A program made the translations under genes and the position numbers. Shown here piece by piece: positions 6,132-28,704 of a stretch of DNA of 32,000 bases (its first letter is position 1; every line of letters starts with the position of its first letter). Below the pieces are notes generated by a model. It made no database searches and was not told where the DNA came from. It was given only the letters and a program-made list of their open reading frames with translations. Origin of the DNA: Telmatocola sphagniphila (GTDB lineage: Bacteria > Planctomycetota > Planctomycetia > Gemmatales > Gemmataceae); contig NZ_CP074694.1 of NCBI RefSeq assembly GCF_018398935.1, forward strand, positions 2,190,001 through 2,222,000. The letters run 5' to 3'.

Positions 6132-6446
6132 CAGGAACAAGCGAGACTTCCTGGAAGCTATCTGTGCTATGTCCCGGTTCCATTCCAACTGGAGTTGCGT
6201 ATTCGAGCTGGATCACCAGTGCGGTTGATGGCACATCCTGCGCCCATCGCTTTCCGGGCTTATAGCCTTCCCTGACGCGATAACGCGGCCTTTTCTCTAA
6301 GGGGCAGGAGGAAAACGCCACTCCCAAGGCCATGAAAACGGCCAGCCCAGGAGTGTGATGGTCATGAAGCCAGTTTCGGCTGGAACCTGTTATCGCGGGA
6401 AGCCCTTCGCCGAGCCGAGACGCAACTGAAGGATGACTTCGATTGG

Positions 6447-6839: not shown

Positions 6840-6927
6840 ATTCAGCTTACTCGACGCCTGAATCGACTCCAAACAATTCCGTTTCAGCACTTACCAAGTT
6901 CAAACACTGTTCGTACCTTTCAGAGTC

Positions 6928-6955
6928 TTGACAGTATAGTACGCTGCGATATAAT
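6928..6955 (+). promoter_or_regulatory. sigma70-like promoter of the PadR gene
   Basis: TTGACA (6928-6933), a 16-nt spacer, then TATAAT (6950-6955). The ATG is at 6968, implying a very short leader. An 8-bp inverted repeat, ATAGTACG (6936-6943) and CGTACTAT (6962-6969), brackets the -10 element. Confidence 0.4.
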
Positions 6956-6967
6956 ACGAAACGTACT

Positions 6968-7558
6968 ATGAAAACCGATGATCAATCTTTGCTCGGGCAC
7001 GCACTCTTGGGGTTGATTCGACTGTGTCAACCCTGCTCGGGTTACGACCTTCGCAGGATGTTTGCCGGCCAGCCTATGGCCACTTTTAGCGATAGTCCGG
7101 GTTCGATCTATCCGGCACTGAAAAGGCTTGAGCGGTCATCGTTGGTAAGTTGTACCGTCGACGAAACTTCCCAAGTGCGGAGGCGAAAGCTCTACCGACT
7201 CAGCCCCCAGGGCCAGAAGGCGTTGACGCATTGGCTCACCCGCCCCATCACTTCGGATGCTGTCTTTCGATGTATGCCAGAACTGTTTCTACGGTTTGCG
7301 TTTCTGGAGGATTGTCTCGGCCCACGCGCTTGCGAGTCCTTTTTGGTATCCTTGGCCGATTACTTGCATCAGCATATTGAAATGCTTCAAGGACACTTGA
7401 AATCACACGAATCGGAGATGTCGCGTTCTGCCCGGCTGGCTTTACAGAGTGGAATCATGGGTTACGAGTGCCAGGCTTCATGGGTCAAAATAGCACTAGA
7501 AGAATATCGGAAATCGGCCTCGGGCAAGGCATTGGCTAGGTCAGTGAATAAGAGTTAG
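6968..7558 (+). CDS. PadR-family transcriptional regulator
   Basis: The wHTH signature is present: LLGLIRLCQPCSGYDLRRMF...SPGSIYPALKRLERSSLV...RRKLYRLSPQGQKAL. A longer C-terminal dimerisation region follows. Confidence 0.9.
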   Translation: MKTDDQSLLGHALLGLIRLCQPCSGYDLRRMFAGQPMATFSDSPGSIYPALKRLERSSLVSCTVDETSQVRRRKLYRLSPQGQKALTHWLTRPITSDAVFRCMPELFLRFAFLEDCLGPRACESFLVSLADYLHQHIEMLQGHLKSHESEMSRSARLALQSGIMGYECQASWVKIALEEYRKSASGKALARSVNKS

Positions 7559-7602
7559 CAAGAGGATTGACCTCAGACTTCCACATCACAAAGGGGATTG
7601 AA

Positions 7603-8904
7603 ATGGGCCGTATCACTTTGACGTTTCTACTCCTGATCGGCGCATGGGCAACCTTGGAAGGTTACTCACAGAAAGCCTGGGCGGATGAAGACACGCGGAA
7701 CCGGCCGTCTGACGAATTGCCGCAGGCAAATCCCAAAGACGTTGGGTTGTCGGCCGAAAAACTCGAACGTGTAAAAACTCTCGTTCAGGGGGTTGTGGAC
7801 AAGAAGCAAACCGCAGGTGTAGTCGTTCTCATCGCCCGCCATGGGAAAGTTGCCTATCTGGAGACGTTCGGAAAGATGAACGCCTTAACCGGCCAGGCGA
7901 TGAGGCCGGACGCCATTTTCCGGATTCACTCCATGAGTAAGCCTATTACCACCGCGGCTGCATTACTGCTGTACGAAGAAGGCAAGTACAAACTCGACGA
8001 TCCGGTTTCGAAATATCTACCTGAGTTCAAGGGCCTACGAGTTCATACCAGAAATGGGGAAGAGGTTGTCGCAGCTAAACGCGAAATGACAATTCGCGAT
8101 CTCATGCGGCACACTTCCGGGCTTACTTATGGGATGCCCAACGGTACTGCCGTGGACAAGATGTATATTGCCAAAGGAATTGACGGGCCTAATCTCAGCC
8201 TAGCGGAAATGGTAAGCGCCTTAGGCAAACTGCCATTACAGGATCAACCAGGAACCCAGTTCAATTACAGCGTTTCGACCGACGTGCTGGCCCGACTCAT
8301 CGAAGTTCTCTCGGGGAAACCGATCGATGAATTCCTAAAGGATCGAGTCTGCCGGCCACTCGACATGCGCGACACAGACTTCATCGTCCCAGATGACAAG
8401 CTGGCGAGGTTCACGGCTAATCATGGGGCAGGCGATAAGGGTATGCTCAAAGTCATTGACGACCCAGCCACTAGCCGGTACCGGACACGACGGAAGTATC
8501 TCTCGGGCGGAGGGGGCTTGGTTTCCACGGCTCGTGACTACGCTCGATTCTGCCAAATGCTGCTGCAGGGAGGAGAGCTTCAAGGCTGTCGGTTGCTTCG
8601 TCCGGAGACAGTCAGTGAAATGACGAGCAATCAGCTCCCAATCGAAGCGTTGCCCATGAAGCTCGGTGGTTTCCCCCTGCCGGGTATGGGATTCGGCCTT
8701 GGTCTGTCAGTACGCCTGGACGCAAAATCAGTTAAGCCCGACCCGGCCGCAGGAGAGTTCGGTTGGAACGGAGCGGCCAGCACTTACTTTTGGGTCGCGC
8801 CCAAGTCAGAGATGGTAGTGATCGTTCTCCAGCAAGTGCAGCCTTACAATTTCACGCTTCAGATGTCCCTAAAATCGGCCATTTATGGGGCGATAGAGAA
8901 TTGA
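7603..8904 (+). CDS. serine hydrolase, beta-lactamase-related family (class C / PBP4-like fold)
   Basis: S-x-x-K motif in IHSMSKPIT. A signal peptide (MGRITLTFLLLIGAWATLEG) starts at ATG 7603, preceded by AAGGGG. The track's TTG start at 7567 is rejected. The gene sits 44 nt after the PadR stop, so it is probably co-transcribed. Confidence 0.88.
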   Translation: MGRITLTFLLLIGAWATLEGYSQKAWADEDTRNRPSDELPQANPKDVGLSAEKLERVKTLVQGVVDKKQTAGVVVLIARHGKVAYLETFGKMNALTGQAMRPDAIFRIHSMSKPITTAAALLLYEEGKYKLDDPVSKYLPEFKGLRVHTRNGEEVVAAKREMTIRDLMRHTSGLTYGMPNGTAVDKMYIAKGIDGPNLSLAEMVSALGKLPLQDQPGTQFNYSVSTDVLARLIEVLSGKPIDEFLKDRVCRPLDMRDTDFIVPDDKLARFTANHGAGDKGMLKVIDDPATSRYRTRRKYLSGGGGLVSTARDYARFCQMLLQGGELQGCRLLRPETVSEMTSNQLPIEALPMKLGGFPLPGMGFGLGLSVRLDAKSVKPDPAAGEFGWNGAASTYFWVAPKSEMVVIVLQQVQPYNFTLQMSLKSAIYGAIEN

Positions 8905-9260
8905 TGCCAAGCAATCTGGGCGGCAGAGAAGCTCACTTTAACACCCCGTATTCGTCCGACGGAAATCGTTAGGAAAGAGAATTACGATTGATCGAAGTCA
9001 TCGTGGTACTCGGCATCCCGTCTAAAGGAACTGAGAGTGCGGAGTGGGCACTGGTAACGAGTGTCCGGTGGATTACTATTCGTTAGTATCCCACCCGATC
9101 TCGATCTTAATCCATCCTCAGGGGCAGACAAGGTAGGACTGTCAGTGGCAGAAATTGAACCAGCCACTATCTGGCTGAAGCGCTGAGTGTGGCGGCAGGC
9201 TAAGCTATCGCGGCGTGTAGGATGGACTCGTAAAAATGCCATGCGAAGTAAAAGCACCAA

Positions 9261-13126: not shown

Positions 13127-13470
13127 ATGGGATTAGTCGCCTCCCCGAGACGGTCTCAATACGACCCAAGTATTTGTCGAGCTCGGTTCCTTTCGCATCA
13201 AAAGGTTACCGAGGTTATCCAGTCCTAAAAGCATTCGTGCCCAACCACCTTATTCTTGATCGGAGTGGTATCAACGGTTTTTCGGTAAATTATTGTCTAA
13301 GCAAGCTATTCCAGAAAGTGGTTTTACATTTGCGCCAAAGTGCTTCGGTTACATCGGCAGGGTTAATCAGCCAATCTAACACGGTGTGCCGGATAGACGC
13401 GCGCAAGCTGGGCGATGGAGAGCGATTGGTAGTTGAACCTTAATTGTCGACACATACCTTGACATACCGT

Positions 13471-15252
13471 TCACCGCCAGAATACTCGGCCGATCAACTG
13501 ACCCTTGGCCGAACGGATCGTTTGGGGATTGCTTCCATCGCGGTCGGCGACCACTAAGCGTGTTTCGATTTTTTTCAGGTCGCTCTTCTCGATCCCCGTA
13601 ATGAAAGGGATGCTTGCAATCGTATAGGCAATCCGGCGGCCATCTGGCGACCAGGCACATTCCACCACCTCGGCTGTCTGCGGAATGTTTTTCAATGGGA
13701 CGAGCACTTTAGGTTTCTCGATCTCGATGATGCATGGCGTTCCCTTGTGAAAGCAGATCAGGCTTTTGCCGTCGGGCGACAATTTTCCCGATTTTGCCCA
13801 CCCTTCAGGCTCCGCAAGGGCTAGGCGTTCGCTGCCATCGACGTTCATCTGATACATTGCTCTCGGATGCCAAAACTCACCCTCGCCGACCGAGGTCGTC
13901 AGGAAGTATTTGCCGTCTGCTGACCAATCCGTGACGAGGTGGGTCTTTAGCAATTCCACCGGCTCTAGTCTCTGGGAGGCGATATCGGCTCGGTAGTGGC
14001 GGACACCTTTCATTCCAGGGGCTCCAACATTCAGGAAAAGTTGGTCCGACTTCGGAGACCAGCAGAATGAGAAATGACCGATTTTGTCCGGCAATTCGAA
14101 ACGGGCCCCGGTACCTTTGCCATCGAGTTGGCGGATACGCAACTCAGTTCCTCCTTTGCGTTTCTCGTCGGCAGTCCACGCCGCTAGCCATTTTCCATCC
14201 GGAGACGGAACCGCCGATCCCACCCATAGCCCCGTCAATTCAACGGCAGTCTCGTCCGTTCCATCCTGATTCAGCAGAGAGAACGCATCGCCATGCACGT
14301 AGGCTATGTGTCTATCAGCGCCTAGTTGTGACTTGGGAACTGCTGCCGATTTTTCTCCGTCTTGGGGAGTGCCAGAGAGAGCGAGTCCGCAAGCCGTTCC
14401 CAATCCAAGCACGGCTGCCATTCCAAAGGCGAGAGCGTAGGCCTTCCATTTTTGCCAGAACATAATGTAGAGAACTCCTTTTGTGATTTGCGAAATAGTT
14501 GTCGGAACGGCGACCGCGGAAACGAGTTGCATGGCCGACGTTGCCAAAGTTGCAGGTATCATGGCAGTTGCTGGGTAGCCCAGGACCAATGCCAAACCAC
14601 CGGCGGGGATAGCGATCAATCGCTCCCGAAGCCGTTGGGCCAGAATTCGGCGGGCCTTCGCTAGACGGCTGGAGAGCGTCCCTTCTGGAATGTCCAGGCG
14701 GAAGGCCGCTTCCTTTCGGTTCGTTAAATCGAGTTCACAGAGGACGACTGCAACTCGGAGATATTCGGGCAGCCGGGCGATTTCCTCGTGGAGGATCCGG
14801 ATCTCTTCGAAGTCCACCCCCACGTCAGTGGACTCAGCCCGATCTGGTACTTGGGGCATGTAGGCCATACGGAATCCTCCTGGCCCCATCGATTTCAGGG
14901 ATTCCAGCGAACAACGTACAGCGACACCATATAGCCAGCCGCGTAATCCTTTGGGGTCGACAATGGCTGCCCGGCGGGCAAGAACCAGAAAAGCGGCCTG
15001 GAAAGCGTCGTCAGCGAGGTGAGAATCTCCCGTGACTCGCCGGCATGTCGCCAGCACCATCGGACCGTGCCGGCCGACTAGAGCTGCGAAGGCATCATCG
15101 TTCCGCGACTGAGCAAATTGGCTCAAGAGCCACCGATCTTCGGGAACTTGACTGGATGATCCCAGGAAGGCGGTCCTTCGCACCCATTCGGAAAATCGGG
15201 TTTCCAATCTGTTCCGCACGCAGTGCCTCCGGCTCGATAAAAGCGTTTCCAT
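13471..15252 (-). CDS. ECF-type sigma-70 factor fused through a TM segment to a TolB/PD40-like beta-propeller
   Basis: Sigma region 2 (DDAFAALVGRHGPMVLATCRRVTGDSHLADDAFQAAFLVLARR...GWLYGVA). Region 4 (LPEYLRVAVVLCELDLTNRKEAAFRLDIPEGTLSSRLAKARRIL). TM helices around WKAYALAFGMAAVLGLGTACGLAL. Repeated SPDGK/WSPDG propeller blades follow. Confidence 0.9.
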   Translation of the reverse strand: METLLSSRRHCVRNRLETRFSEWVRRTAFLGSSSQVPEDRWLLSQFAQSRNDDAFAALVGRHGPMVLATCRRVTGDSHLADDAFQAAFLVLARRAAIVDPKGLRGWLYGVAVRCSLESLKSMGPGGFRMAYMPQVPDRAESTDVGVDFEEIRILHEEIARLPEYLRVAVVLCELDLTNRKEAAFRLDIPEGTLSSRLAKARRILAQRLRERLIAIPAGGLALVLGYPATAMIPATLATSAMQLVSAVAVPTTISQITKGVLYIMFWQKWKAYALAFGMAAVLGLGTACGLALSGTPQDGEKSAAVPKSQLGADRHIAYVHGDAFSLLNQDGTDETAVELTGLWVGSAVPSPDGKWLAAWTADEKRKGGTELRIRQLDGKGTGARFELPDKIGHFSFCWSPKSDQLFLNVGAPGMKGVRHYRADIASQRLEPVELLKTHLVTDWSADGKYFLTTSVGEGEFWHPRAMYQMNVDGSERLALAEPEGWAKSGKLSPDGKSLICFHKGTPCIIEIEKPKVLVPLKNIPQTAEVVECAWSPDGRRIAYTIASIPFITGIEKSDLKKIETRLVVADRDGSNPQTIRSAKGQLIGRVFWR

Positions 15253-15656
15253 GTATCTTATTGGCCAGAAGTGCGGCCGCGCGTCGTAGAAATCTACTCG
15301 GAGTGTGTCTATTCAATCCATTTGGTGGAAACTCGAAATAAATAGGTCGAGGAATTGCCTTCTCGTTTGGAGAAGGGGTAACTCTCGTCGCAGGGAGGCC
15401 GTTTCAACGAATCGGATCAGATTGGTTTTGGAAAGAAATAGTACAAAAGAGACTGAAGGATTATCTCATTTCGGTCACAGTGACTATGTTCTTCAACCCA
15501 AATTCGCCAGCGGCGTGTCGGACCGAAGTCGATACGGACACGCCGAAAAATCGCCCTCGAGATCCGTACAATTACATCCGACCGGGTCGCCGCCAGTATC
15601 TGGAACATCGATTTTATGGTCCGGTTGAGATCAAAGACGTGGAGGAGTCATAAGCC

Positions 15657-16700
15657 ATGACGAAGCGAACGGCCCTAATCCTGGCTCTGGCGATGCTTTC
15701 ATTTTCATGCCGACGCCCCAACCAGCCGACACCCGCAGTTTCACCACCCGCAGTCGCCCCATCTGACCAAGGTCGGCCCGCTGCTTTACCAACGGCACCT
15801 ACCGGCGACCTCGAACTGCTGGTCGGCAAATGGAACATAGTACCGGCCGTGGCGGACGGCGAGGGCTATACGGCTTCCTACCGCCGGGCGAAGTTTGAGA
15901 TCGCGGCCGGGGGCAAGTACATGTTTGCCTTACCCGGGCTCGTCGAAGAGACGGGGACAATTTATAAGCTCGACGGCGATGACCTGATGATTTGCTTGAG
16001 CATGCTCGGTAACCGGCGCCCGACCGATTTCGTGACCACGAAGGACTCTTGGCGGGTCCTGATGACCTGTAAGCGGATGAAACTCGCGGACCACCCGAAG
16101 GGCGTCACCGCCAAAGCGCCACTACCTCAAACGCTGCCCCGGGATGTACAGCAAGCCTGGGTGGAGGCGGGAGCTGAAGTCGGCTGGATGGGAAAGACGG
16201 ACGACCATGTGAGCTTGGAGTTTAGGACAACACCGGACGCACTGATCGACCCGGTTCCCGCGTTTCGGTTCAAGACTTGGACAGTGAGGACGGTGGCCAG
16301 GCTCCCGGTACCGAAAACGCCATTCGGACTCGACCTTACGGGCACCGAGGCAACCGATGCGGATATGAAGGGGTTGGAGATGCTCGAATCACTGAGTGCA
16401 CTCGACCTGGCGTTTACCACACTGACAGATGTGGGATTGAAAAATCTATCCGGCCTGAAGTGTTTAACCGTATTAAACCTTTTCGCAACTAAGGTAACGG
16501 ATGTGGGATTGAAAGAGTTAGCAAGCTTGAACTCCCTGCGTACGTTAGATCTGCGCGTACTTGATATAACTGATGTTGGTCTAAAGGAACTGGCTGGGAT
16601 GAGATCCCTCCAGTGTCTCGACCTCGCTGATACGAGGGTGACAGACACAGGGGTGAAAGAACTGAAGCAGGCGTTACCCAATTGCTGGATTCGAGACTGA
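15657..16700 (+). CDS. lipoprotein with a TIGR03067-like domain and C-terminal leucine-rich repeats
   Basis: Lipobox LSFS|C. LVGKWNIV...GTIYKLDGDDLMICL...RRPTDF resembles the planctomycete TIGR03067 domain. Five 24-aa LRRs follow (LxLxxTxVTDVGLKELxxLxxLxx). Confidence 0.88.
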   Translation: MTKRTALILALAMLSFSCRRPNQPTPAVSPPAVAPSDQGRPAALPTAPTGDLELLVGKWNIVPAVADGEGYTASYRRAKFEIAAGGKYMFALPGLVEETGTIYKLDGDDLMICLSMLGNRRPTDFVTTKDSWRVLMTCKRMKLADHPKGVTAKAPLPQTLPRDVQQAWVEAGAEVGWMGKTDDHVSLEFRTTPDALIDPVPAFRFKTWTVRTVARLPVPKTPFGLDLTGTEATDADMKGLEMLESLSALDLAFTTLTDVGLKNLSGLKCLTVLNLFATKVTDVGLKELASLNSLRTLDLRVLDITDVGLKELAGMRSLQCLDLADTRVTDTGVKELKQALPNCWIRD

Positions 16701-17075
16701 GGAACCCAACCGGACCGGCCGCCATCGTGCCTCCCCCGTCGTGACCGTCGGCTTTTTCTGACTCTTCCCGTCACTAGAAGTGCGAACAAGGTCTTATTGC
16801 AAATGCCAACGGCCAACCTATGCTCGCGGCGGGCACACAGACCTGACGAAGTTTTCTATATTGAAACCGCCCTACCCCCGGACAAATCTCTCTCATATCG
16901 GGTGATTAATGGATAGCCCTAATTTATGTCCCCGTCAGACGAACGATCGTGAGGCGAATGTCACTGAGGATTTCCTGACCCAGGAGATTCTCTGCACCGT
17001 GTCGATTCCGCCGAATGGACACCCGAACAACGACTCCAGCGGATCACTTACCACTTCGCCCAAGGCCTGATTCGG

Positions 17076-17413: not shown

Positions 17414-18439
17414 ATGAAGTCTTCCCTGTTAGCATCGATTCTGATCCTGTCTATCTCCGACACCCCAGCGCAGGGGGCTGGCTTGAAAGCGGTCGCCGTT
17501 TCGCCGGACAGGTCATTGGTGGCTGCCGGCGGCACCAATGGGGTCGTGGTCTGGGAGACCAAAACATCCAAGGTTATCGGCAAGTTCTCAACGACCGGAA
17601 CTGTGCAATGTCTGGGATTCGTTAAAGACTCTCGGACGGTTGTCGTTGGCTTGGACAGTAAAGGGGCCGAGGCTTGGATCCAGAAGGCGGGAGTCTGGAT
17701 GCGGGCCGCCCACTTTGCTGGGGACGGAACCATATACGCCCTGGCCATTCCACCTAGCGGCAAGGAAGTTGCGATCGCTTCTGACAGCGGCTGGACTTAT
17801 CTGTATGAGACGGAGAAATGGCACCAGACGGGCGTCTTGTGGGAACGTGCGAACCTCACCAGTGGGATTGCGTTCTCGCCGGACGGATCTGGACTCGCAT
17901 CGGCCGGGAACTCGTTCAGTATGTGGGACCTTCGAACTGCGTCCGGACTCCGCAAAGCGCGGGCAGATCGCTCTTATGAAGAACTCGAGGCGACCTCGAA
18001 AAAATTCTGGACCTGGTCCCGCGCGGTCGGCGAGCCGGAGGTCGACGTCTACTGCTCGGACATTACTTTCTCCCCGGACGGGAAGCGAGTGGCCGGCACG
18101 ACGGGAGTAGGTCGACACTTCACGGGAGGAAAACGACTCTTTGTCCTCGAGGCCAGTACCGGTCGCGACGTGTGGGTCGGGCGAGGGAACGGGATGCTGA
18201 CGGTAACCTATGCGGCGGAAGGAACGGCTCTAGTCACGGGATCGGACGATGGCAAACTGCGGGTGTGGCATCCGGAAAACGGCAAAATGCTTCGGGAGTG
18301 GCGCGGACACGAGAAGAGCGTGCGGCAGGTGGCGCAACTGGGTGGCAAGCAGTTCGTCTCAGTGGGTGAAGACGGCAAGGTTATCGCCTGGGATGTCGAT
18401 TCCGGCGAGTTGGTGGCCCGCTTCGTACCGGACAAGTAA
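17414..18439 (+). CDS. WD40-repeat protein with signal peptide
   Basis: Signal-like N-terminus (MKSSLLASILILSISDTPAQG). WD40 blades are visible: VAVSPDRSLVAAGGTNGVVVWE, IAFSPDGSGLASAG, LVTGSDDGKLRVWHPENGK, VSVGEDGKVIAWDVDSGE. Confidence 0.9.
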   Translation: MKSSLLASILILSISDTPAQGAGLKAVAVSPDRSLVAAGGTNGVVVWETKTSKVIGKFSTTGTVQCLGFVKDSRTVVVGLDSKGAEAWIQKAGVWMRAAHFAGDGTIYALAIPPSGKEVAIASDSGWTYLYETEKWHQTGVLWERANLTSGIAFSPDGSGLASAGNSFSMWDLRTASGLRKARADRSYEELEATSKKFWTWSRAVGEPEVDVYCSDITFSPDGKRVAGTTGVGRHFTGGKRLFVLEASTGRDVWVGRGNGMLTVTYAAEGTALVTGSDDGKLRVWHPENGKMLREWRGHEKSVRQVAQLGGKQFVSVGEDGKVIAWDVDSGELVARFVPDK

Positions 18440-18812: not shown

Positions 18813-21800
18813 CTATTTTCGTGCTAGTTCGAGGATTCGACCTTCGGGTAGCTGTCTCGTTTGAATTAAGGAAGGATTTGTTTTAAGCGATTGCACTTCA
18901 CCTTCCTGGACCAAATGAAATTCTCCCTGTCCCTGGCTGGGAATTTTGCTCATCGCAGTCGGTCTTGTTTCGAACATCGGTTTCAACTTCTTCAAAGCCG
19001 TTTGTTCCTTGACTCGGCCGACCAGCCACGCCCGAATCTGATCGCGGCATTTATAATCAAAATCGCCAGGGCTTTGCGATGCTAAAAACAGACCCAATCC
19101 AGCTGAACGAGACCGCTTTAGCAGATTCTCGATCGGAGCTTTCGTCGAAGGGGAACTCTTAGCAGGCAGATAACGGTCGGCTTCATCCAGCATCAGTATC
19201 GCTTGCAGATTACCTTCGGGGGCGGGATTTTTTCTTATCCATTGTCCAAATCCTATCAGCATTTGGGAAAGCCAAAAGCTTTCAATTTGTTCTCCTCCTA
19301 AAAAGTGAGTGCAAATAATACTGAGGCGGGTTTTGCCCGGAACCGAGTGCGGGCCGCGACCCAAAAGAAGATCGATGCTCAGTTCCTCTTCCCCTTGGAA
19401 TAGGCTTCTGTACTGCAGATCTAAAAGTCCTAAATCGAACGCCAAATTCTTGAAGTGTTTATCGTCGATGCCCTCGGCATGATAGAGAAGGGAATCGTCG
19501 CGATCGTCCACGAATCGACGCAAAGAAGAGATCGTGACCGGATTGGTCGAACTCAGAGCTAGCAATTCCATTGCCTTCGCAAGCACGGCCAGTTTGGGAT
19601 CGACCCCCGCGGTCCTCTTTCCGAGTATGCCGGCAATAGCATCCGCGGTCATTCGGGCCGTCTGTTCTTGCTCATCTTTCGGTAATTGTTTGAGATCTGC
19701 AGATAATAATGGAAGCGCGAGATGTCGCCCTGCCGTCGAACCGGGTGTAAATAGGGCAATGTCAATGGCCTGACGAAGATTGCGTCGAGCGGTCGAAAAA
19801 GTGTCAGACTCTGTGGATTCCCAGGCGTCGGGATCGGCGTAGCGGGCCAAATCGCCTTTGCGATCGATGAGTACAACCGGAATTCCATTTTGCAGTAGTT
19901 GTTCGATGAGTGTAAGGGCAGCCGTTGTCTTTCCGCTTCCCGAGCCTCCCAAAAAAGCCATATGCTGCTTTAAATCTTGGCTTTTAATTGAAATTCCATT
20001 TGAACTTCCTCGATTTTGACCCAATGTGAGTGTTTCGTTTCGGACGATCGATGGAACCGAGATCTGCTTGGGAAGATCGACCGCTTGAACTTTTTCAGGA
20101 ATTGGCAAAGCAACAGTCGGAGGAACGACCTGAGTGGAGGCTTTAAAGAGTGTCTGCAAGCGATCGAGATCGAGGATTTTGCGCGTGGATGGTAGTACGG
20201 AGAGAGGTTTGCAATCGGTTTGCCAGGCCGCGAAGCCCGGGCTGTTTTGATGCTCGAGTTGAAAAGTGCGAAAAGCATGAAGAGCGCGCCAATCTCCCGA
20301 TTCCACTACGACTCGCTTTCCTTTTCCTTTGGGAGCTACGAGTTGAACGATCTGTTGAGTGACTTTATTCTTAATCGAATCCGGAAAATCGGTCGACCGG
20401 ATCAGAGCCACCGGTAATTCGCCCGCACGTTTTGCAGCTTCTTCAACTTGTTTCCCTAATCCTCCTCCCTGAGCCTTCTTTTCGCAAATGGCTAAGAGCA
20501 ATTTGTTAACTGAATTGTCTGGGAAATGGATTTCGGTTTCTACGAAGCGGCCCGAAGGCGTTGCTCCGATATGAACGCCCGTGGGCAACTCTTTCGATAC
20601 GGCTTCTAGCGAAAGCGACATCAGTTCGGCGGCCTCCTCTTCTTCCATTTCTGGCGTGGGATGGGCCGAGAGAAAATCGTTCCATACTTTTTGAAATTGG
20701 ATCTCACAGGAAGGCGGAGCCGACTTCTGAACCTGGTGGGGTTCAATATCCGTTGCGTTCGAACCTTCGGTGGGATTGATCCAGCGCTCGACCAATTTGC
20801 ATCGCTCTTGGTGATCGCGAAACCAGTTGAGAATGGTTCGAGTGTTCTTTCCGGAGAGAAATTGCAAGTCCGAGGAGCGAAAGGGGTAAAGAACATAGTT
20901 CCCTTCGAAGGAGACATCTAAATTTGCGTAAAGGAATTCCAAACGTTTGGCGAGTAAGGCCTCAATCTCATCTGCATCTCGGTTCTCTTTGATGAAAATG
21001 GGTTTTGGGTCCTGCTCCAACCGGTCGCGTTTAGAGCGAGTGAGCTTTTGCTGCATCGCGCTAAAATAACTTTCCAGACAGGCGACGACGACGACAGCAT
21101 TGGGAATGCCTTCGGAGATATTCACTAAGGCATCGACGGCTTTACGGAATAGCCAGCCCGATTCCCGTTCTTCGAACTCCAGATCGAAAGTCTCTTCGAT
21201 CTGGTCGGCAAGTATGACAAGGGGAGCCTGCTGCGCGGCGGCCATGACGCGAGCTAGACCGCAAATAGTGCGGAAAGCGGAATCCTCGGCAGTCTGCGGC
21301 CCCAATCCACCGAGTAGTTCCCTATCGGCAGGAGCGAGTTCCTCGCAGCGCAACCATCGGATAACACGTGATTTTAGACGGGCATCGTTAGGAAGCAGGA
21401 AGAGCAAAGCACGCAATAAATCGAGATCGCAATCGGCATATCGCTTATCCTGGATAGCGAAATCGGCATATCGGAAGACTCGATCGGCCGTCTCACGAGC
21501 ATCGGCCAATTCTTCTCGGAAATCTTTTTTTTCTTCGGCAGGCACAACATCGAGTGAATCAAGCAGCGCTTGCGCCAATCGGGTTAAGCCCGGCGTCGAA
21601 GAAACTTCCGTGAGGTAAGGTTGATTGAGGCCATCGATCAAATTACCCAAAAGATAGCGAGTATAATTTTCGGTCTTGGACGACATTTGGGCATAACTGC
21701 AATAGCCGCCTCGTTGGTGAGCATAATGTCGGAAGGCCCGCATGAGGTGGGTTTTACCGCTGCCCGCTGAACCGAGGAGTAATAAAGATTTTCCACCGTT

Positions 21801-21998
21801 CGAATCCGCCGCCTCGTGCAATAACTTCGCGAAACGCTCTCGGGCGTCGGAATGGATCTCTTCCACGTCTAGAGGATCCGGCTTCCAAATATTCTGCGGA
21901 TGCACGATCGAGCCGAATACTTCTACGGAATCGAAAGACAGGTAGGCGTCGAGACGCTTATTGGTCGACTTCGCGCTTGTTGGGGCAATGGCGGTCAT
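18813..21998 (-). CDS. 1061-aa dual P-loop ATPase: N-terminal AAA/ORC-like NTPase plus C-terminal HerA/FtsK-like ATPase
   Basis: I place the start at ATG 21998 (GAGGA 8 nt upstream), 13 nt after the upstream gene's stop. The track's start at 22067 would overlap that gene by 56 nt. Walker A1 is GSAGSGKT (21750-21773) and Walker B1-like is VILADQIEE (21192-21218). Walker A2 is GGSGSGKTT (19923-19949) and Walker B2 is LMLDEADRY (DEAD at 19176-19187). SAGLGLFLASQSPGDFD, typical of HerA/FtsK-type ATPases, follows. Confidence 0.85.
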   Translation of the reverse strand: MTAIAPTSAKSTNKRLDAYLSFDSVEVFGSIVHPQNIWKPDPLDVEEIHSDARERFAKLLHEAADSNGGKSLLLLGSAGSGKTHLMRAFRHYAHQRGGYCSYAQMSSKTENYTRYLLGNLIDGLNQPYLTEVSSTPGLTRLAQALLDSLDVVPAEEKKDFREELADARETADRVFRYADFAIQDKRYADCDLDLLRALLFLLPNDARLKSRVIRWLRCEELAPADRELLGGLGPQTAEDSAFRTICGLARVMAAAQQAPLVILADQIEETFDLEFEERESGWLFRKAVDALVNISEGIPNAVVVVACLESYFSAMQQKLTRSKRDRLEQDPKPIFIKENRDADEIEALLAKRLEFLYANLDVSFEGNYVLYPFRSSDLQFLSGKNTRTILNWFRDHQERCKLVERWINPTEGSNATDIEPHQVQKSAPPSCEIQFQKVWNDFLSAHPTPEMEEEEAAELMSLSLEAVSKELPTGVHIGATPSGRFVETEIHFPDNSVNKLLLAICEKKAQGGGLGKQVEEAAKRAGELPVALIRSTDFPDSIKNKVTQQIVQLVAPKGKGKRVVVESGDWRALHAFRTFQLEHQNSPGFAAWQTDCKPLSVLPSTRKILDLDRLQTLFKASTQVVPPTVALPIPEKVQAVDLPKQISVPSIVRNETLTLGQNRGSSNGISIKSQDLKQHMAFLGGSGSGKTTAALTLIEQLLQNGIPVVLIDRKGDLARYADPDAWESTESDTFSTARRNLRQAIDIALFTPGSTAGRHLALPLLSADLKQLPKDEQEQTARMTADAIAGILGKRTAGVDPKLAVLAKAMELLALSSTNPVTISSLRRFVDDRDDSLLYHAEGIDDKHFKNLAFDLGLLDLQYRSLFQGEEELSIDLLLGRGPHSVPGKTRLSIICTHFLGGEQIESFWLSQMLIGFGQWIRKNPAPEGNLQAILMLDEADRYLPAKSSPSTKAPIENLLKRSRSAGLGLFLASQSPGDFDYKCRDQIRAWLVGRVKEQTALKKLKPMFETRPTAMSKIPSQGQGEFHLVQEGEVQSLKTNPSLIQTRQLPEGRILELARK

Positions 21999-22011
21999 CT
22001 GAGGTCCTCGC

Positions 22012-23043
22012 TCAATCGATGCGAATGAAGTTGAATATGGACTGACAGTCTTCGATCTCGGATTCACGAACGTCTTCGGGGTTCATGGCTTGCACGAGAT
22101 CGGCTCGCACCAAATCTAGGTAACGAGCCGCGTTTGCTTCAACCAGCTTCGCTTTGAAAGAAGTCAGATCGAATCCTTGAAAGCGGGGTTCATTTTTGAG
22201 CGAGTGCCAAACGTGATTGATGAAAACGGTGCGATCTCCGAAGCGACCACTCGGACAGTGCCGGGCCGCTGCTTTCACAGTATCGGCAAACTCTTTGAGA
22301 TCAAAATCCGACTCCTCGGTCATGCGATGGTCGAGCTTATTCGAAGAAAGAATTGCGTTTGACTCGACTGCATTCTCCAGATTCATGTCGGAATTCAGCC
22401 AGTCTGCAATCAACTTCTGACGCAATCCTTTTGCTCCTCCTTGCTTTAACTTCAGCATTATCCTGGGAAGCTGTTTCTTGAGAATATCGCTGGAAAGGAG
22501 TTCGTCACTTTGAATTTGCCGGCAGAGCACTCGGCGGATCAAGCGCCGGGCGTCGGTCTCTTCGGGGAATCCCAGTTCCTTCGCAACTATCGCCACGAGC
22601 AGATCGGAGAGACTTGCATTCGAGGAGATGGGAAGCCCTAATTGCGTCTTGAGCATCCGAGATGCCAGTTGATCTTGCGTCAGGCTTTTAGGATTCTCTT
22701 TCGGATTCATCCCTGAAGCCCGATAGGTGAGATAGCGCGACTCAATGATCCTCCAGGTGCTGCGCGGCGGTAATTCGGACAGTGCGAGACAATCCAAGGC
22801 TCGCTTTCGGCCCCTCTCCGTTAGCCGTAACGCTTTGGGTTCCAGCAACCCATCGGTACGAGTAATTGACAGCAAAATGTTCCATTGTTCAGTCGACAGC
22901 GATTCTTTGAGATATTGGTTCAGACACTTCCTAACCGCTTGTGCAGCGGGGGGTCCCTTCGACGAGGCTAATATCCGTAGCAAGAGGAGATCGGTTAAAC
23001 GAGTCGAAATAACTTCGGCAGGGGCGGTTAAGGGCTGGCTCAT
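22012..23043 (-). CDS. hypothetical protein with winged-helix-like N-terminus (middle gene of the three-gene operon)
   Basis: 343-aa ORF. N-terminal LLLLRILASSKGPPAAQAVRKCL...TDGLLEPKALRLTERGRKRAL looks like a wHTH. C-terminal block: GRFGDRTVFINHVWHSL...FKAKLVEANAARYLDLVRADLVQAMNPEDVRESEI. No family name recognised. Confidence 0.8.
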   Translation of the reverse strand: MSQPLTAPAEVISTRLTDLLLLRILASSKGPPAAQAVRKCLNQYLKESLSTEQWNILLSITRTDGLLEPKALRLTERGRKRALDCLALSELPPRSTWRIIESRYLTYRASGMNPKENPKSLTQDQLASRMLKTQLGLPISSNASLSDLLVAIVAKELGFPEETDARRLIRRVLCRQIQSDELLSSDILKKQLPRIMLKLKQGGAKGLRQKLIADWLNSDMNLENAVESNAILSSNKLDHRMTEESDFDLKEFADTVKAAARHCPSGRFGDRTVFINHVWHSLKNEPRFQGFDLTSFKAKLVEANAARYLDLVRADLVQAMNPEDVRESEIEDCQSIFNFIRID

Positions 23044-23058
23044 AGGACATGAACTCCA

Positions 23059-24297
23059 TTAGGATACGGCCGCATTTTTACGAAAAGCGACAGCGGACAT
23101 AATCGTGTCCAGTATGACCTCCATGTCGGGTAATATATCCTCGGCCAAGAATCGAAGGACTAAATATCCGTTTCGTTGATACTCCCAATCCTTGCGGCGA
23201 TCCCTTCGATAGGCCTTTTCATCGCTGAGATGAAAATATAGTCCATCGATTTCAATTGCCAACCGCAATTTAGGACTAACCAAGTCTCCTTCCGCCCATT
23301 GCGTACCGTGACGAAACTCCAAACGTTGATTTAGGTAAAAGAATCCAACTGTTTCGGGATGCGATTCGAGGAGATCGAACAGGAATCTCTCGGCTCGGCT
23401 ACGGGCGCGGTCTTCCTCGATCGCGTTCCCAGGGGGTGAATCCGAGTTGGCAATGTCTTCAATCTCTTCGAGCACCGTTTCAGTTACGCCCAGTTCGATT
23501 AAACGGTCGACGCTTTTCGAGGCAAGGCATTTATTCGCAGTGGTAGAAAGCCGCTGCTGGATCTGTTGTGCATCAATCGAAGCAATATCCACTCGGCCCT
23601 CGCGGACCATTGTGGCTGTCTGGGAATTACCGGCAGCCTGCAAAAAAGAATCGATGTCTTTCTCGACTCCGAAAATAGCTAAATGCAATTTTGGAATGGT
23701 TTTGCAAAGAATCGTCAGCAGTTCAACCGCAGTTCTAAATGGAATTTTCGGTTCTCTATTCACAATTGCCAATGTTGGTAAACCGACACCCACGATTTCA
23801 CTGAAACCCTTCATGATCGTCACCCAGGATGCGGAATCGTCAGAGAAAACCTCAGTTTGCAAATCTGCAAATATCCGATCGGGTTCAACGGGCAAGGATT
23901 TGACCGCTCGCAAGAACAGCCAGTGGCAAATGGCAAACATCGGTTTTGAGTGGTCTCTTTGGTCGAGTCTGCACCAGGTTTGATCGAACTCGTAAACGGT
24001 CATTCTTTTGAGCCGATCAAGAAAATCGAGAATAGTATTGGGTTCGCTGAGATTGAAGGCAAAACGTGCGGCTTGAGTGTTCAGGTCGAAAGAGGCCCCC
24101 AATAACCTCGTCCAATCCCGGGCAATTGCCTCTTTTGTAATAGAAGTGGGAATTGAAACTTTTAAGCCATTTTGACTGGCCCAAGCGCACCAGTTATTCA
24201 TGCTTGGACCGAGTGGTCCGACAATCGTGGTCAGAGTCGGAATCGACTCCAAACGTCGATTTCGGTGGACATCGAAAATGCGATGGTCCGCTTTCAT
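23059..24297 (-). CDS. protein with C-terminal DUF559 / Vsr-like (PD-(D/E)xK fold) endonuclease domain and a roughly 300-aa unknown N-terminal region
   Basis: The C-terminus RSRAERFLFDLLESHPETVGFFYLNQRLEF...AEGDLVSPKLRLAIEIDGLYFHLSDEKAYRRDRRKDWEYQRNGYLVLRFLAEDI matches the DUF559 pattern. I prefer the ATG at 24297 (MKADHRIF). The track's TTG at 24486 adds a 63-aa highly basic, unnatural-looking extension. Confidence 0.78.
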   Translation of the reverse strand: MKADHRIFDVHRNRRLESIPTLTTIVGPLGPSMNNWCAWASQNGLKVSIPTSITKEAIARDWTRLLGASFDLNTQAARFAFNLSEPNTILDFLDRLKRMTVYEFDQTWCRLDQRDHSKPMFAICHWLFLRAVKSLPVEPDRIFADLQTEVFSDDSASWVTIMKGFSEIVGVGLPTLAIVNREPKIPFRTAVELLTILCKTIPKLHLAIFGVEKDIDSFLQAAGNSQTATMVREGRVDIASIDAQQIQQRLSTTANKCLASKSVDRLIELGVTETVLEEIEDIANSDSPPGNAIEEDRARSRAERFLFDLLESHPETVGFFYLNQRLEFRHGTQWAEGDLVSPKLRLAIEIDGLYFHLSDEKAYRRDRRKDWEYQRNGYLVLRFLAEDILPDMEVILDTIMSAVAFRKNAAVS

Positions 24298-24574: not shown

Positions 24575-24885
24575 CATCATAAACCACAAAGCTCTGAAAA
24601 GGCTATACTTACCCACATACGTGGCTTAGGTCGTGGTTCCGTGTTCATTCCGGGCGATTTTCTGGACCTGGGGAAGCCGCAGGGAGACGATTTTGCCTTG
24701 CATCGGTTGGTTAAGCAACGGGGATTGCGGCGACTAGCCCGGGGCTAGTATGACTTTCCGAAGTCGCATCCGCAACTCGGAGTACTCTCTCCTTCAGCAA
24801 CTAAGATTGCCAAGACCCTCGCGGGCCGAGACTGTGCCGCATTCAGCCTTCCGCGGCCGATGCGGCGAATCGGCCGCCTCTCGCC
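24575..24885 (+). pseudogene. AbiEi-like (type IV TA antitoxin, DUF6088-type) gene remnant
   Basis: My translation is SSEKAILTHIRGLGRGSVFIPGDFLDLGKPQGDDFALHRLVKQRGLRRLARG*YDFPKSHPQLGVLSPSATKIAKTLAGRD, then after a frameshift QPSAADAANR. There is an in-frame TAG at 24746-24748, no ATG, and the C-terminal half is absent. Confidence 0.6.
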
Positions 24886-25603
24886 TCACTCATGCTGCCG
24901 CTTCCTCCGCTGGGGATTCAACGCAAGATCGGCTCGATTCTCACGGGCTTCGAGGATCTGATCGAGAATAATAACGAGCGCATCCGGATTTTGGAATCGC
25001 TGGCCCAATCGATTTACCGTAAGTGGTTTGTGGATTTTCGCTTCCCTCGTCGTGGGAAACTTATTTGGGTGGAATCGCCACTGGGGAAGATTCCTAAAGG
25101 CTGGAGAGTTGATCCAATTTCAAACCGGTTCAACGATCAAACCCGATCCCAAAGGAGCGTATGCTCTCTACGGATCGAACGGCATTATCGGAAAGAGCTC
25201 GGGCTTTCAATTCGAACGGGGAATAATCATCGGCCGGGTCGGGAATTATTGCGGTTCGGTTCAGTACTCCCATTCCACCTTCAGTGCTTCGGGAAATACC
25301 ATTATAGCGCTACCTCTGGAAGGAAACGAGGAGCTAATTCCTTACCTCTATTACACTTTAAAGCACCTTTCGCTCGGCCAATTTGCGAGCGGATCGGCCC
25401 AGCCCCAGATTACGCAAAGCGTTTTGAAAACCCAGCCGGTCTTGATCCCTCCGGTATCTTTTCTGAAAATATTCTGTTCAGTAACATTCGAATTGCTGCG
25501 TCAAATTGATCACCTGAAGAAAGAAAACGAGAACCTTCACAAAACCCGCGAACTGCTCTTGCCGGGACTGATCTCCGGCCGACTCGACCTGGAAAGAGTT
25601 TGA
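24886..25603 (+). pseudogene. hsdS: type I restriction-modification specificity subunit (HsdS) half-gene, frameshifted
   Basis: Central conserved region: LPLPPLGIQRKIGSILTGFEDLIENNNERIRILESLAQSIYRKWFVDFRFP...IPKGWRV. A 1-nt frameshift near 25105-25113 then leads to ELIQFQTGSTIKPDPKGAYALYGSNGIIGKS...QPQITQSVLKTQPVLIPP...TRELLLPGLISGRLDL. No hsdM or hsdR is present in the window. Confidence 0.8.
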
Positions 25604-26015: not shown

Positions 26016-27902
26016 CTAAAAGTTAAATTTTTGAGATCCTAGCAGGCGAAGAAGAAGCGTCAATTTTTTCGTCACTGAGAAGGCAATGCCAACTCCCAGC
26101 ATTCCCAGGACGATCAGACAAGTGACTAATAATCGGAACGATAGCGTCATTTCTCCAGTAATAACAACTAGCAACACGGCCCCCACCAGGGGTATGACGG
26201 CAGCAAGACTTTGAAAAACCGCTAACCAACGACTCGCCCCCACCATTTCTGCCGCGAGGGTAGTCGGGGTTCGCGTATCGGCATTGGTAAGTCGCGGATA
26301 AAAAACTCTCAGGACGACAAATTGAATTCCAAAATGCGAATAGATTACGGCGATTAATCCCGACAGCGTGAAGGATACAAGAAAGTGAAAGTAGACCTCT
26401 CCAGAAACTCCACCTGCGATAACATCGATAAAAATTGGAAAGACAAGGCCACCAGGTAGCCAGCCAGCCAAGGCCAGAATGATCCCCCAAGTGCCCAATT
26501 TCAACACTCTAAAGCGCAATAGGTCGACCTCGGAACCGTCCATAATCGCCGATTCGGACAGACGGCGCCAACCGCGCACTATCGGACGGAGTAGCCGAAA
26601 CATAATGAATAAGCAAATGGGATAGACGAACAGATTATAGCCCAGAACGATCTTTTCAAAGGCTCGATGTTGAGGAGGATCCAATCGTACTTCGATGGTG
26701 TTGTAAGCAATATTAACAAATGACCCTATCATCTGCGGTAACAAGGTTAATAGGAAGAGAGCCAAAAACGGATTGCGTTCTACCCAGGCTGTCAGCAATC
26801 CTTCCGACGGAAGCCGTTCTTCAATAGCCAGCGCGTCGGATGCGTTCGCCAAGGCTCCAGCCAATTCACCCGCAGTTTGATAACGTTGAGTGGGTTCAGG
26901 ATCCAAGCAGCGTCGGAGTATACGTTCAACTACCGGAGGCAACTCCTGTACTACCCAACAACTGGAAACTGAAAATGACTTTTGATTTTGGAGGAGCTGG
27001 AGTTTGTCTGTCCTCGGATCACCAGTAGCAGGTTTATCGAATGGCATCCGACCAGTTAATAACTCATATAAAACGACACCAAGCGAATAAAGATCACTTC
27101 GCTCATCGACCACTCCGAAACCCGGTTCTTTTAGATAGGCCCCCAGATGCTCCGGCGCCATATAGCCAATAGTGCCTCCGAGGTGGTTTCGGGCTCGAAC
27201 ATCTTGGGTATCGATGGCGATATTGAAATCGGCCAAGAGTGGCCTGCCGTACGGATTGATTAAGATGTTAGCCGGTTTGATATCGCAGTGAAGAACACCG
27301 CGACGATGCGCGAATTCCAGTGCTTCTGCCATTTGCACGCTGATCCGGCATATTGCCGCGGCAAAACGATAAGTGGCCAGAATCTCACGATTTCGAATCC
27401 CAGCCAGATCAAAGGGAATTTCCTCATTCGAATCAATTGTTATCGATTCTAAAATCTCAATTCCTTGAACTGGACGTCGATTATTCTTGTGAAGGTGCTC
27501 GATCACATGAGCCAGAGTGACTCCAGGAACATACTGCAAGCAGAGACAATGCTTCCCGGATTCAACATTGATGAATTGTCCGTAAACCTGAACGATGTTT
27601 TGGTGTTCTAATTCTGCTAAGGCCTGGCCTTCGCCGAGTCCTAGAGTTTCGGAGACTTTCAAGGCCACCCTTCGATCCAGCGTAACGTCGTGAGCGAGAT
27701 AGACCGTTGCAAATCCCCCCCTGCCGAGTTCTCGAAGGATTACGAAATCGTTGAATCGTTCTCCGGGTCGAAAGCGCTGACTGGAGCAGGAAATCGATAC
27801 TTGCTCAACCTTTGTGGGTGCATTCAGAGTGCTCGCTGCTAAGTCGCTCCTCGAGATGGCGAAGATATCGGACTGTTCCTTTTTTTTCTGAGCTTCGGAC
27901 AT
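26016..27902 (-). CDS. Ser/Thr protein kinase with a polytopic (about 6 TM) C-terminal membrane domain
   Basis: Hanks kinase motifs are present: LGRGGFATVYLA, RRVALKV, HRRGVLHCDIKPANILI, ADFNIA, GTIGYMAPEH. The C-terminal 260 aa contain about six hydrophobic helices. Confidence 0.92.
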   Translation of the reverse strand: MSEAQKKKEQSDIFAISRSDLAASTLNAPTKVEQVSISCSSQRFRPGERFNDFVILRELGRGGFATVYLAHDVTLDRRVALKVSETLGLGEGQALAELEHQNIVQVYGQFINVESGKHCLCLQYVPGVTLAHVIEHLHKNNRRPVQGIEILESITIDSNEEIPFDLAGIRNREILATYRFAAAICRISVQMAEALEFAHRRGVLHCDIKPANILINPYGRPLLADFNIAIDTQDVRARNHLGGTIGYMAPEHLGAYLKEPGFGVVDERSDLYSLGVVLYELLTGRMPFDKPATGDPRTDKLQLLQNQKSFSVSSCWVVQELPPVVERILRRCLDPEPTQRYQTAGELAGALANASDALAIEERLPSEGLLTAWVERNPFLALFLLTLLPQMIGSFVNIAYNTIEVRLDPPQHRAFEKIVLGYNLFVYPICLFIMFRLLRPIVRGWRRLSESAIMDGSEVDLLRFRVLKLGTWGIILALAGWLPGGLVFPIFIDVIAGGVSGEVYFHFLVSFTLSGLIAVIYSHFGIQFVVLRVFYPRLTNADTRTPTTLAAEMVGASRWLAVFQSLAAVIPLVGAVLLVVITGEMTLSFRLLVTCLIVLGMLGVGIAFSVTKKLTLLLRLLGSQKFNF

Positions 27903-27939: not shown

Positions 27940-28704
27940 TCATCGAGCAAAATCATCCTTCTTTAATGCATTTTTTTCGAGGGTGGGTCGGCAATATTCG
28001 TACAGGCGAAGATCAATTAATTCTTGTGCGAGTTCTTCCTGTGTCGGCTGAAGAAGCGACGTTGACAAATCTTCGAGCAACAGATCCGCGAATTTTTCTC
28101 TCGCCCGCTGGAGTGCTTTCCGGACCGCAGGCGCATTGAGGGGCTTATTGAGCCTTTGGCTCATCATCTCGGCCATTTGTTCGCTCGACTGATCCGGATG
28201 GTCTGCCTTGTATTTCAAAATCGCATGATAAGGCTGGCCGCTACTTTCTTCCACGGCCAAGAGAGCTTGCCAGGCGCGACTCAGAAATTCGTCTCGCCAG
28301 CAAGTGATTAACGTTTCCTCGTCGATTCCTTGCGCGGCTTCGCTCTCGGCCGGTTCGGGAAACTCACTTGGCAAGTGGCCAGGTCGCTTCTTCCCTTTGC
28401 GGTAGTGGTTCGCAATCAGATTCTGGAGTATTCCTTTGACAAAGTCTCGGAAGCGTCCCCGATTTGGGTCAGCTCCTTTAAACGCCCCTTTAAGAAATGC
28501 GACTGCAAATTCCTGAGCCAATTCCTGAGCGAGATCCTCATTGCGAACAGCCCCCAGTAAGTAACGTTCCACAGCGCCCCCGTAAAGTTCCAGAAGCTGC
28601 CAAAGGGCCGTACGGCCCTCGGGCAAGTCGGCATCGTTGTTGGCGGCTCGGATCTGCTGCCAACTCGTGTTAATGGCGCTGAGTCGATTATTCGGTATGG
28701 GCAT
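27940..28704 (-). CDS. ECF-like sigma-70 family factor (kinase-associated type)
   Basis: Region-2-like segment: EFAVAFLKGAFKGADPNRGRFRDFVKGILQNLIANHYRK. Region-4-like HTH: SSEQMAEMMSQRLNKPLNAPAVRKALQRAREKFADLL. The gene ends 37 nt upstream of the kinase gene on the same strand. Confidence 0.78.
   Translation of the reverse strand: MPIPNNRLSAINTSWQQIRAANNDADLPEGRTALWQLLELYGGAVERYLLGAVRNEDLAQELAQEFAVAFLKGAFKGADPNRGRFRDFVKGILQNLIANHYRKGKKRPGHLPSEFPEPAESEAAQGIDEETLITCWRDEFLSRAWQALLAVEESSGQPYHAILKYKADHPDQSSEQMAEMMSQRLNKPLNAPAVRKALQRAREKFADLLLEDLSTSLLQPTQEELAQELIDLRLYEYCRPTLEKNALKKDDFAR

Follow-up and report, generated by a model that had tools for sequence, protein, structure and literature searches.

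Comparative genomics has predicted a class of Orc/CDC6-coupled 'HerA/FtsK capture systems' (Rakesh, Aravind & Krishnan, NAR 2024; PMC10853773), a computational prediction whose core consists of an Orc/CDC6 ATPase, an inactive restriction endonuclease (REase) domain placed before the Orc winged helix-turn-helix (wHTH), an active REase, a HerA/FtsK ATPase and a wHTH. These domains are carried on a single polypeptide or divided among several, in neighbourhoods that are mobile and variable, and a fast-evolving multi-wHTH protein is sometimes found with them; the inactive REase, said to be 'invariably' present, lies between the AAA+ core of the Orc/CDC6 module and its C-terminal wHTH, and the active REase is said to belong to one of two specific families. 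The authors also note effectors that join a CDC6/ORC-clade NTPase to a C-terminal REase, and describe the capture neighbourhoods as showing both mobile-element and defence features, with the Orc/CDC6 NTPase-REase effectors deriving from transposon ATPases. A further system with a bearing on what follows, MADS (Mad1-8), has been validated experimentally: it comprises eight genes, including those for an N6-methylase and an S subunit, the Mad6 kinase, the DptG-like Mad7 and Mad8 are mandatory components, and without Mad8 there is no phage defence (Maestri et al., bioRxiv 10.1101/2023.03.30.534895). In addition, BrxD of the BREX systems has been classed as an ORC/Cdc6 AAA+ ATPase (PMC12839542). 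Here we describe three adjoining genes, termed A, B and C, that lie within a stretch of 32,000 nucleotides (nt) of DNA from Telmatocola sphagniphila (Gemmataceae, Planctomycetota), referred to as the window, in whose positions coordinates are given.

The module formed by these genes is real and widespread, lies outside current defence catalogues, and was anticipated in kind by comparative genomics. Its three proteins are a dead AAA+-like domain joined to a predicted Vsr-type nuclease (A), a member of a large unannotated family with a putative winged helix (B), and an Orc/Cdc6-like AAA+ domain fused to a HerA/FtsK-type ATPase (C). On balance, we lean towards reading the trio as a conflict module that is self-contained, moves horizontally and is of the HerA/FtsK capture type; a mechanism in four steps can be proposed for it.

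Gene organization

An earlier note on this DNA had described three tightly packed coding sequences on the minus strand, and their coordinates, the two intergenic gaps of 15 nt (A/B, 23044-23058) and 13 nt (B/C, 21999-22011), and the GAGGA ahead of C could all be verified in the sequence (Table 1). The proposal that they form a single unit was strengthened by their distribution, as the same order recurs in dozens of unrelated genomes, where start and stop codons often overlap by 4 nt (for example in L001, L082 and L083 of the loci described below). A scan for promoter and terminator consensus sequences returned sites that were no more frequent than in shuffled sequence.

C is identical (100%, over its full length) to a T. 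sphagniphila protein that NCBI names 'DUF2791 family P-loop domain-containing protein'. The deposited NCBI version of gene A encodes only 254 aa (P0208, 62% coverage). Because the homologues of A, which number about 1000, are mostly 400-430 aa long and align from residue 1 of the 412-aa form, and because the AlphaFold 2 (AF2) model likewise fits 412 aa, the deposited start codon was probably placed too far downstream. A longer, TTG-initiated open reading frame (ORF) of A, extending to 24486, was rejected, as the homologues give it no support.

Distribution, linkage and evolution of the module

In a pattern scan covering one genome per species, C proved to have at least 548 relatives, of which the 80 best loci were examined. 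Among these best 80 are loci from Planctomycetota, Myxococcota and Cyanobacteria (Nodosilinea, Leptolyngbya), together with Gamma- and Betaproteobacteria (Thiocystis, Nitrosomonas), Desulfobacterales and Verrucomicrobia, and the trio occurs in at least six phyla. To determine linkage, loci were re-scanned with hidden Markov models (HMMs) built from the A, B and C alignments, which recovered divergent A genes such as that of L086. In the 68 loci with enough upstream DNA, B was found directly upstream of C in all but one (67/68), while A was complete in 49, partial in 2, represented by short fragments in 3 and absent from 13. The fragments, which lie just upstream of an intact B-C pair in L014 (8776-8994), L026 (2166-2423) and L050 (8743-8979), are evidence that several lineages have seen the nuclease gene decay. 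All-against-all clustering of the ORFs from 81 loci revealed no fourth recurring gene beside A, B and C. Since only these three recur, and A is sometimes missing, the core of the module is B plus C, with A a usual but dispensable member. We found nothing consistent upstream of B in the loci lacking A that might serve as a replacement effector.

There is usually one copy per genome, with two copies each in Minicystis rosea and Chondromyces apiculatus. In L060 (8900-13173), from a metagenome-assembled genome labelled 'uncultured Alcaligenaceae', the copy is degraded: A is represented by an N-terminal piece and B by a C-terminal one, and C is truncated at its N-terminus; this contig may be mis-binned, because its nearest relative is planctomycetal (55% identity).

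The proteins do not evolve evenly along their length. Mean pairwise identity is 0.25 in the N-terminal domain of A, its fastest-evolving part, and 0.51 in the nuclease; 0.28 in the N-terminal two-thirds of B and 0.50 in its C-terminal domain; and 0.45 in the AAA+ domain of C, 0.26-0.36 in its middle region and 0.53 in the HerA domain, the most conserved part of C. Recognition-like parts thus evolve faster than catalytic or docking parts. Furthermore, the identity of C homologues is 0.48 within phyla versus 0.42 between them, and several have their nearest neighbour in another phylum. As judged from these comparisons, the pattern fits a module that is accessory, exchanged horizontally and equipped with rapidly evolving recognition parts, and does not fit a vertically inherited housekeeping set.

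Domain architecture of the three proteins

Two sets of Walker A and B motifs had been noted in C, and both were located, the first Walker B being atypical in reading DQ for DE. The N-terminal third of the protein matches Pfam AAA_16 (E 1e-12) and BrxC_BrxD (E 1.7e-6; 27.6 bits against a cut-off of 22.2), the PADLOC model for BrxD (E 7e-5) and, weakly, DnaA structures in the PDB; by these profile matches, rather than by a phylogeny, the domain would be placed in the Orc/CDC6 clade. Its Walker B has the form hhhhDQ, not DE, in nearly all C homologues (D265 is invariant and Q266 nearly so), which suggests that ATP would be bound, its hydrolysis being slow or absent. The C-terminal third matches Pfam DUF87, HerA_C, TrwB and FtsK, and the structures of YjgR, HerA and DotL in the PDB. 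The best match of this HerA domain in a defence library is to PADLOC mad8 (E 8e-23, residues 677-1033), followed by HerA models and DndH. Between these two ATPases lies a middle region for which a 12-sequence profile found no match in Pfam or the PDB. It carries a conserved pattern, E470 ... VE ... LAVC(N/E/D)K (LAICEKK at 20475-20495), and the resemblance of this pattern to a decayed PD-(D/E)xK core is suggestive only.

Protein A was modelled by AF2 with confidence (pLDDT 91.3, pTM 0.86). The C-terminal DUF559/Vsr-like nuclease attributed to it in the earlier note agrees with a Pfam DUF559 match to residues 338-403 (E 5e-7) that lies above the Pfam cut-off. Moreover, the C-terminal ~100 residues superpose on I-Bth0305I, where the match is to a Vsr-like homing-endonuclease domain, and on NGO0050 (Foldseek prob 1.0, TM 0.8). 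E336, D338, E349, D351, H356 and an RRDRRKD motif are invariant in 52 homologues of A, and because these acidic and basic residues never vary, the predicted nuclease looks active, with an intact active site.

The N-terminal domain of A finds RdrA of RADAR (prob 0.98), TnsC (0.93), DnaA, Cdc6 and RFC in Foldseek searches, at modest E-values of 0.013-0.8. It lacks the Lys/Thr of Walker A (IVGPLGPS at residues 25-32) and the acid of Walker B (LAIVNR at residues 176-181), and from these residues nucleotide binding in the usual mode is predicted to be impossible. When compared with the N-terminal ATPase of C, the domain aligns with it weakly (hhalign E 0.027, probability 1.8%) but in colinear fashion, with the strands of Walker A, Walker B and sensor-1 in register; we take a paralogous origin of the two domains as a lead and not as a result.

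For B we found no family match in Pfam, PADLOC, NCBIfam or PHROGs, and a search for homology to A or to C found none. In a set of 1.84 billion proteins its profile picks out 2740 cluster representatives (clusters at 50% identity), almost all of which measure 320-370 aa. Four parts can be distinguished in the AF2 model (pLDDT 88.7), in which the winged helix is followed by a helical region, then by a linker that is disordered (residues 227-243) and finally by a compact C-terminal alpha/beta domain. Structural and profile neighbours are confined to the winged helix and are weak (DtxR, profile E ~0.08; PadR, MarR and RosR, Foldseek E 0.09-1), so that the winged-helix-like N-terminus read earlier from the sequence gains weak backing. 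The majority of the invariant columns in the B alignment fall in the C-terminal domain, and distant loci align to B through this domain alone. Given this pattern of conservation and the strict linkage of B and C, the C-terminal domain, which possibly has a second wHTH-like topology, presumably docks onto C.

Table 1 Features of the three-gene module and of the adjoining gene remnants in the Telmatocola sphagniphila window
Feature	Position	Strand	Details and evidence
Gene A	23059-24297	minus	412 aa from ATG; ORF call
A residues 1-240, AAA+-like alpha/beta domain	23578-24297	minus	Foldseek, hhalign
A residues 313-412, DUF559/Vsr-like PD-(D/E)xK nuclease (predicted)	23059-23361	minus	Pfam, Foldseek, invariant columns
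Gene B	22012-23043	minus	343 aa; ORF call
B residues 14-95, winged helix-turn-helix, fast-evolving	22759-23004	minus	Secondary structure H-H-H-hairpin-H
B residues 248-343, conserved alpha/beta C-terminal domain	22015-22302	minus	GRFGDxxVFIxHVW ... RADLVQAMxPxDVxESE
GAGGA ribosome-binding site	22005-22009	minus	6 nt ahead of the ATG of C
Gene C	18813-21998	minus	1061 aa; ORF call; dual P-loop ATPase
C residues 51-330, Orc/Cdc6/BrxD-like AAA+ domain	21009-21848	minus	AAA_16, BrxC_BrxD
First Walker A, GSAGSGKT	21750-21773	minus	C residues 76-83
First Walker B, VILADQIEE, atypical	21192-21218	minus	C residues 261-269 (VILADQ 261-266)
C residues 331-665, middle region, possibly degenerate REase fold + wHTH	20004-21008	minus	Sequence pattern only
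C residues 666-1040, HerA/FtsK-type ATPase	18879-20003	minus	PADLOC, Pfam, PDB matches
Second Walker A, GGSGSGKTT	19923-19949	minus	C residues 684-692
Second Walker B, MLDEADRYLP	19164-19193	minus	MLDEAD = C residues 936-941
ASQSPGDFD motif of the HerA/FtsK domain	19056-19082	minus	C
DUF6088/AbiEi-like antitoxin pseudogene fragment	24581-24868	plus	Profile positions 2-79 of 172, E 3e-15
Frameshifted type I HsdS remnant, single target-recognition domain	24892-25603	plus	Conserved helical region 24892 to ~25030

Genomic context

The AbiEi and HsdS remnants that had been reported beside the trio are present, though in degraded form. The AbiEi-like fragment has an in-frame stop (24746-24748) within its conserved 'RG-Y' motif, and no AbiEii partner lies nearby in the window; the HsdS remnant is frameshifted, its second frame (25028-25603) comprising one target-recognition domain and a C-terminal helix, and the window holds no HsdM or HsdR. 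We found no tRNA, Rfam match or convincing flanking repeat that would mark the boundaries of an element in the window.

Beyond the window, the argument from a defence island does not hold. Six loci had their genes called and annotated with Pfam, and there the flanks contain RND efflux pumps, MarR/TetR regulators, dehydrogenases and a glutathione S-transferase (GST), with LptF/G, Dus, a pseudouridine synthase and ABC transporters as further neighbours. The 104 immediate neighbours taken from 80 loci, defined by crude ORF calling (the longest non-overlapping ORFs) and counted without a background control, contain 138 Pfam families, none of which occurs in more than 4 loci. Few of these heterogeneous neighbours match defence models: Uma2/PDC-S03 in 3-4 loci, which are likely cyanobacterial, and one each of BrxL, a UG35 reverse transcriptase and an SNF2 helicase. 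The earlier note had asked whether homologues co-occur and are enriched near defence genes; the co-occurrence holds and the enrichment is not supported.

Several other genes were seen near the trio. A gene for a WD40 beta-propeller protein lies directly downstream of C in 9 loci, including the window (17414-18439, plus strand); it is convergent to C in the window, L014 (13200-15080) and L045 (9667-10731), and on the same strand as C in the Sorangium-group loci L041, L052, L053, L059 and L064 (~13230-16940). In at least 13 loci a Ser/Thr kinase gene is found no further than 10 kb away, and the window itself holds one, for a membrane kinase (26016-27902, minus strand). As Ser/Thr kinase and WD40 families are both very abundant in these phyla, this proximity is likely due to chance. 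One C homologue from a JGI metagenome (P0064, 1271 aa) carries FHA domains (PF00498, PF16697), which together with the nearby kinases hints at phospho-dependent regulation, or else at nothing beyond the abundance of kinases in these genomes. The window also encodes two proteins resembling sigma factors of the extracytoplasmic function (ECF) type, one of them fused to PD40 repeats (13471-15252 and 27940-28704, both minus strand); together with a membrane Ser/Thr kinase, such genes are typical of the regulatory content of planctomycetes.

Upstream of B-C, two further arrangements were noted. In the second copy of Minicystis rosea, which lacks A (L065, 4379-9002), genes for Prok-RING4, caspase and EAD5-CHAT proteins directly precede B-C; such domains are characteristic of conflict systems centred on an NTPase, and the genes could represent an alternative effector set. 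In L041, L052, L053 and L064 (Sorangium, Minicystis, Polyangiaceae; ~2400-9000), B-C is preceded by genes for a kinase-AAA_16-TPR protein, a 216-aa protein, YcaO and TfuA, the synteny with this YcaO-TfuA thioamidation pair being limited to that four-genome clade.

Proposed mechanism and alternative explanations

With the parts list, the linkage and the conservation of the trio established by observation, we infer every step of a mechanism in which captured DNA is pumped towards a nuclease. From what is known of its family, C would oligomerise through the HerA/FtsK domain to form a ring that pumps double-stranded DNA. The Orc/Cdc6/BrxD-like domain of C would act as a slow ATP-dependent switch or as a DNA loader, a role that seems likelier than that of a motor because its Walker B reads DQ instead of DE. 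B would recognise the target through its fast-evolving N-terminal wHTH and helical part, while docking on C through its conserved C-terminal domain. Finally, A would be the effector, whose dead AAA+-like domain, probably co-assembled with the AAA+ domain of C, would tether a nuclease that cuts only DNA captured and fed to it by the pump.

A number of observations weigh against this reading. The inactive REase insert described as invariable in the capture class was not found in C by the Pfam and PDB profile search of the middle region, and the relationship between the N-terminal domain of A and the AAA+ domain of C is weak by its hhalign scores. About a quarter of the loci have no A, which implies that B-C can persist without its nuclease. 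The flanks in the six annotated loci and among the 104 neighbours are mostly housekeeping, so that enrichment in defence islands is not supported and guilt by association offers no support for a role in defence; that role is inferred for the family from its domains alone. Searches of plasmids, phages and IMG/VR likewise gave no full-length copy, just distant matches to the HerA domain.

Some of the same observations would fit a cellular DNA-maintenance or repair module of large-genome bacteria with complex lifestyles, comparable to HerA-NurA resection or FtsK segregation and without an immune function. Neighbourhoods are mostly housekeeping, copies are chromosomal, with none on plasmids or phages, and usually single per genome, the family is found mainly in Planctomycetota, Myxococcota and filamentous Cyanobacteria, and the Vsr family includes a bona fide repair nickase. 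Against this, synteny with genes of repair or replication is not conserved, the nuclease gene was lost or fell into decay repeatedly, rapid evolution marks the DNA-binding parts, sequence identity stays flat from phylum to phylum and some nearest neighbours lie in a different phylum, one copy is associated with caspase and EAD5-CHAT genes, and the HerA domain is nearer to Mad8 and DndH than to repair HerA. We therefore consider a maintenance role unlikely, if still worth bearing in mind. A remnant or domesticated Tn7-like or other mobile element, whose function would be its own mobility or addiction, seems more improbable still. The Orc/Cdc6-type ATPase, the nuclease of REase fold and the wHTH selector do parallel TnsC, TnsA and TnsD, the N-terminal domain of A resembles TnsC (Foldseek prob 0.93), genomic contexts vary, and PMC10853773 reports mobile-element features and a transposon-ATPase origin for effectors of this sort. 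Set against these parallels, no transposase, integrase or recombinase is present in the module or recurs in its flanks, neither terminal repeats nor a tRNA lie beside the window copy, and genomes carry one divergent copy in place of multiple near-identical insertions. As for a chance adjacency of unrelated genes, this was excluded, since dozens of genomes, drawn from several phyla, repeat the gene order and spacing, and stop and start codons often overlap in them, and mis-called ORFs are hard to reconcile with high-confidence AF2 models for A and B; we give the two together virtually no credence.

The reading of the trio as a capture-type conflict module can also be taken further. It is conceivable, although we hold this to be rather doubtful, that the trio represents a widespread immune or DNA-surveillance machine in which an Orc/Cdc6-like switch and a HerA/FtsK pump reside in one polypeptide, a dead AAA+ paralogue plugs in a Vsr-type nuclease, and the B family, with more than 2700 clusters, supplies specificity; such a machine would be preferentially retained in large-genome social and multicellular bacteria and would have a mechanism unlike that of any HerA system studied. 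Should the module act against invaders, the capture class, known to date from comparative-genomic prediction only, would gain its first member amenable to experiment. The module would further provide a defence system characteristic of Planctomycetota, Myxococcota and Cyanobacteria, phyla that are thinly covered by defence catalogues drawn mainly from Proteobacteria and Firmicutes. In addition, it would give a function to the large unannotated B family, and would show how a pseudo-ATPase domain couples a nuclease to a DNA pump.

Comparison with known systems

Scans of A, B and C against PADLOC, NCBIfam and PHROG gave no match at the level of a system. The sole strong PADLOC match of the trio, that of the HerA domain of C to Mad8, points to MADS; neither A nor B matches mad6 or mad7, however, no such gene is conserved beside the trio, and Mad8 (a profile of 314 positions) lacks the N-terminal Orc/Cdc6-like ATPase. 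In DndFGH/DptFGH a large HerA/FtsK protein works with a multi-wHTH protein (DptG) and a nuclease activity, a combination that the domains of the trio resemble. The match of C to DndH (E 3e-5) covers the HerA part only, and that to DndF (E 0.05) the P-loop only, whereas homologues of DptF and DptG, the Dnd modification module, and the REase, kinase and inactive SWI2/SNF2 domains that DndH itself carries are all missing from the trio.

In HerA-Sir2, HerA-DUF4297 and archaeal HerA-NurA, as is proposed for the trio, a HerA ring scaffolds or drives an effector, which is a nuclease or an NADase, and several PADLOC HerA models match C weakly (E 1e-5 to 1e-8). Yet A and B have no Sir2, DUF4297, NurA or Cap4-like domain, the partner here being a Vsr-type nuclease, and the HerA of the trio is fused to a second ATPase and accompanied by an obligatory wHTH protein. 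With BREX, the trio shares the N-terminal domain of C, which passes the Pfam BrxC_BrxD cut-off, but the PglX methylase, PglZ, BrxA/B and BrxL are not part of the conserved module, and the PglX, PglZ and BrxC core does not recur in its flanks either. Hhe (Gao 2020), a single protein, HheA, that combines a helicase with Vsr, was rejected, as there is no PADLOC Hhe match and the architecture differs.

The closest counterpart is the predicted capture class. The earlier note had held that the trio corresponds to no system that it could name and is a candidate for an undescribed system acting against mobile genetic elements. It is indeed represented by no system in PADLOC-DB v2 or NCBIfam 2026, and is a candidate of that kind by its domains alone; its domain set (HerA/FtsK, Orc/CDC6-type AAA+, wHTH, an active-looking REase-fold nuclease and possibly an inactive REase), however, matches the predicted capture-system core (PMC10853773), so that a system of this kind had already been proposed. 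What sets the trio apart is a nuclease of DUF559/Vsr type that is fused to a dead AAA+-like domain, and Vsr/DUF559, planctomycetes and myxobacteria are absent from the text of PMC10853773 in the parts drawn on here. In common with the class, it possesses a HerA/FtsK ATPase, an Orc/CDC6-like AAA+ domain and a wHTH; A has the architecture of an NTPase with a C-terminal REase effector, albeit with a dead NTPase; and the proposed logic of localising on an invader, pumping its DNA and cutting it is the same. We therefore regard it as probable that the trio works like the capture class and is a variant belonging to it.

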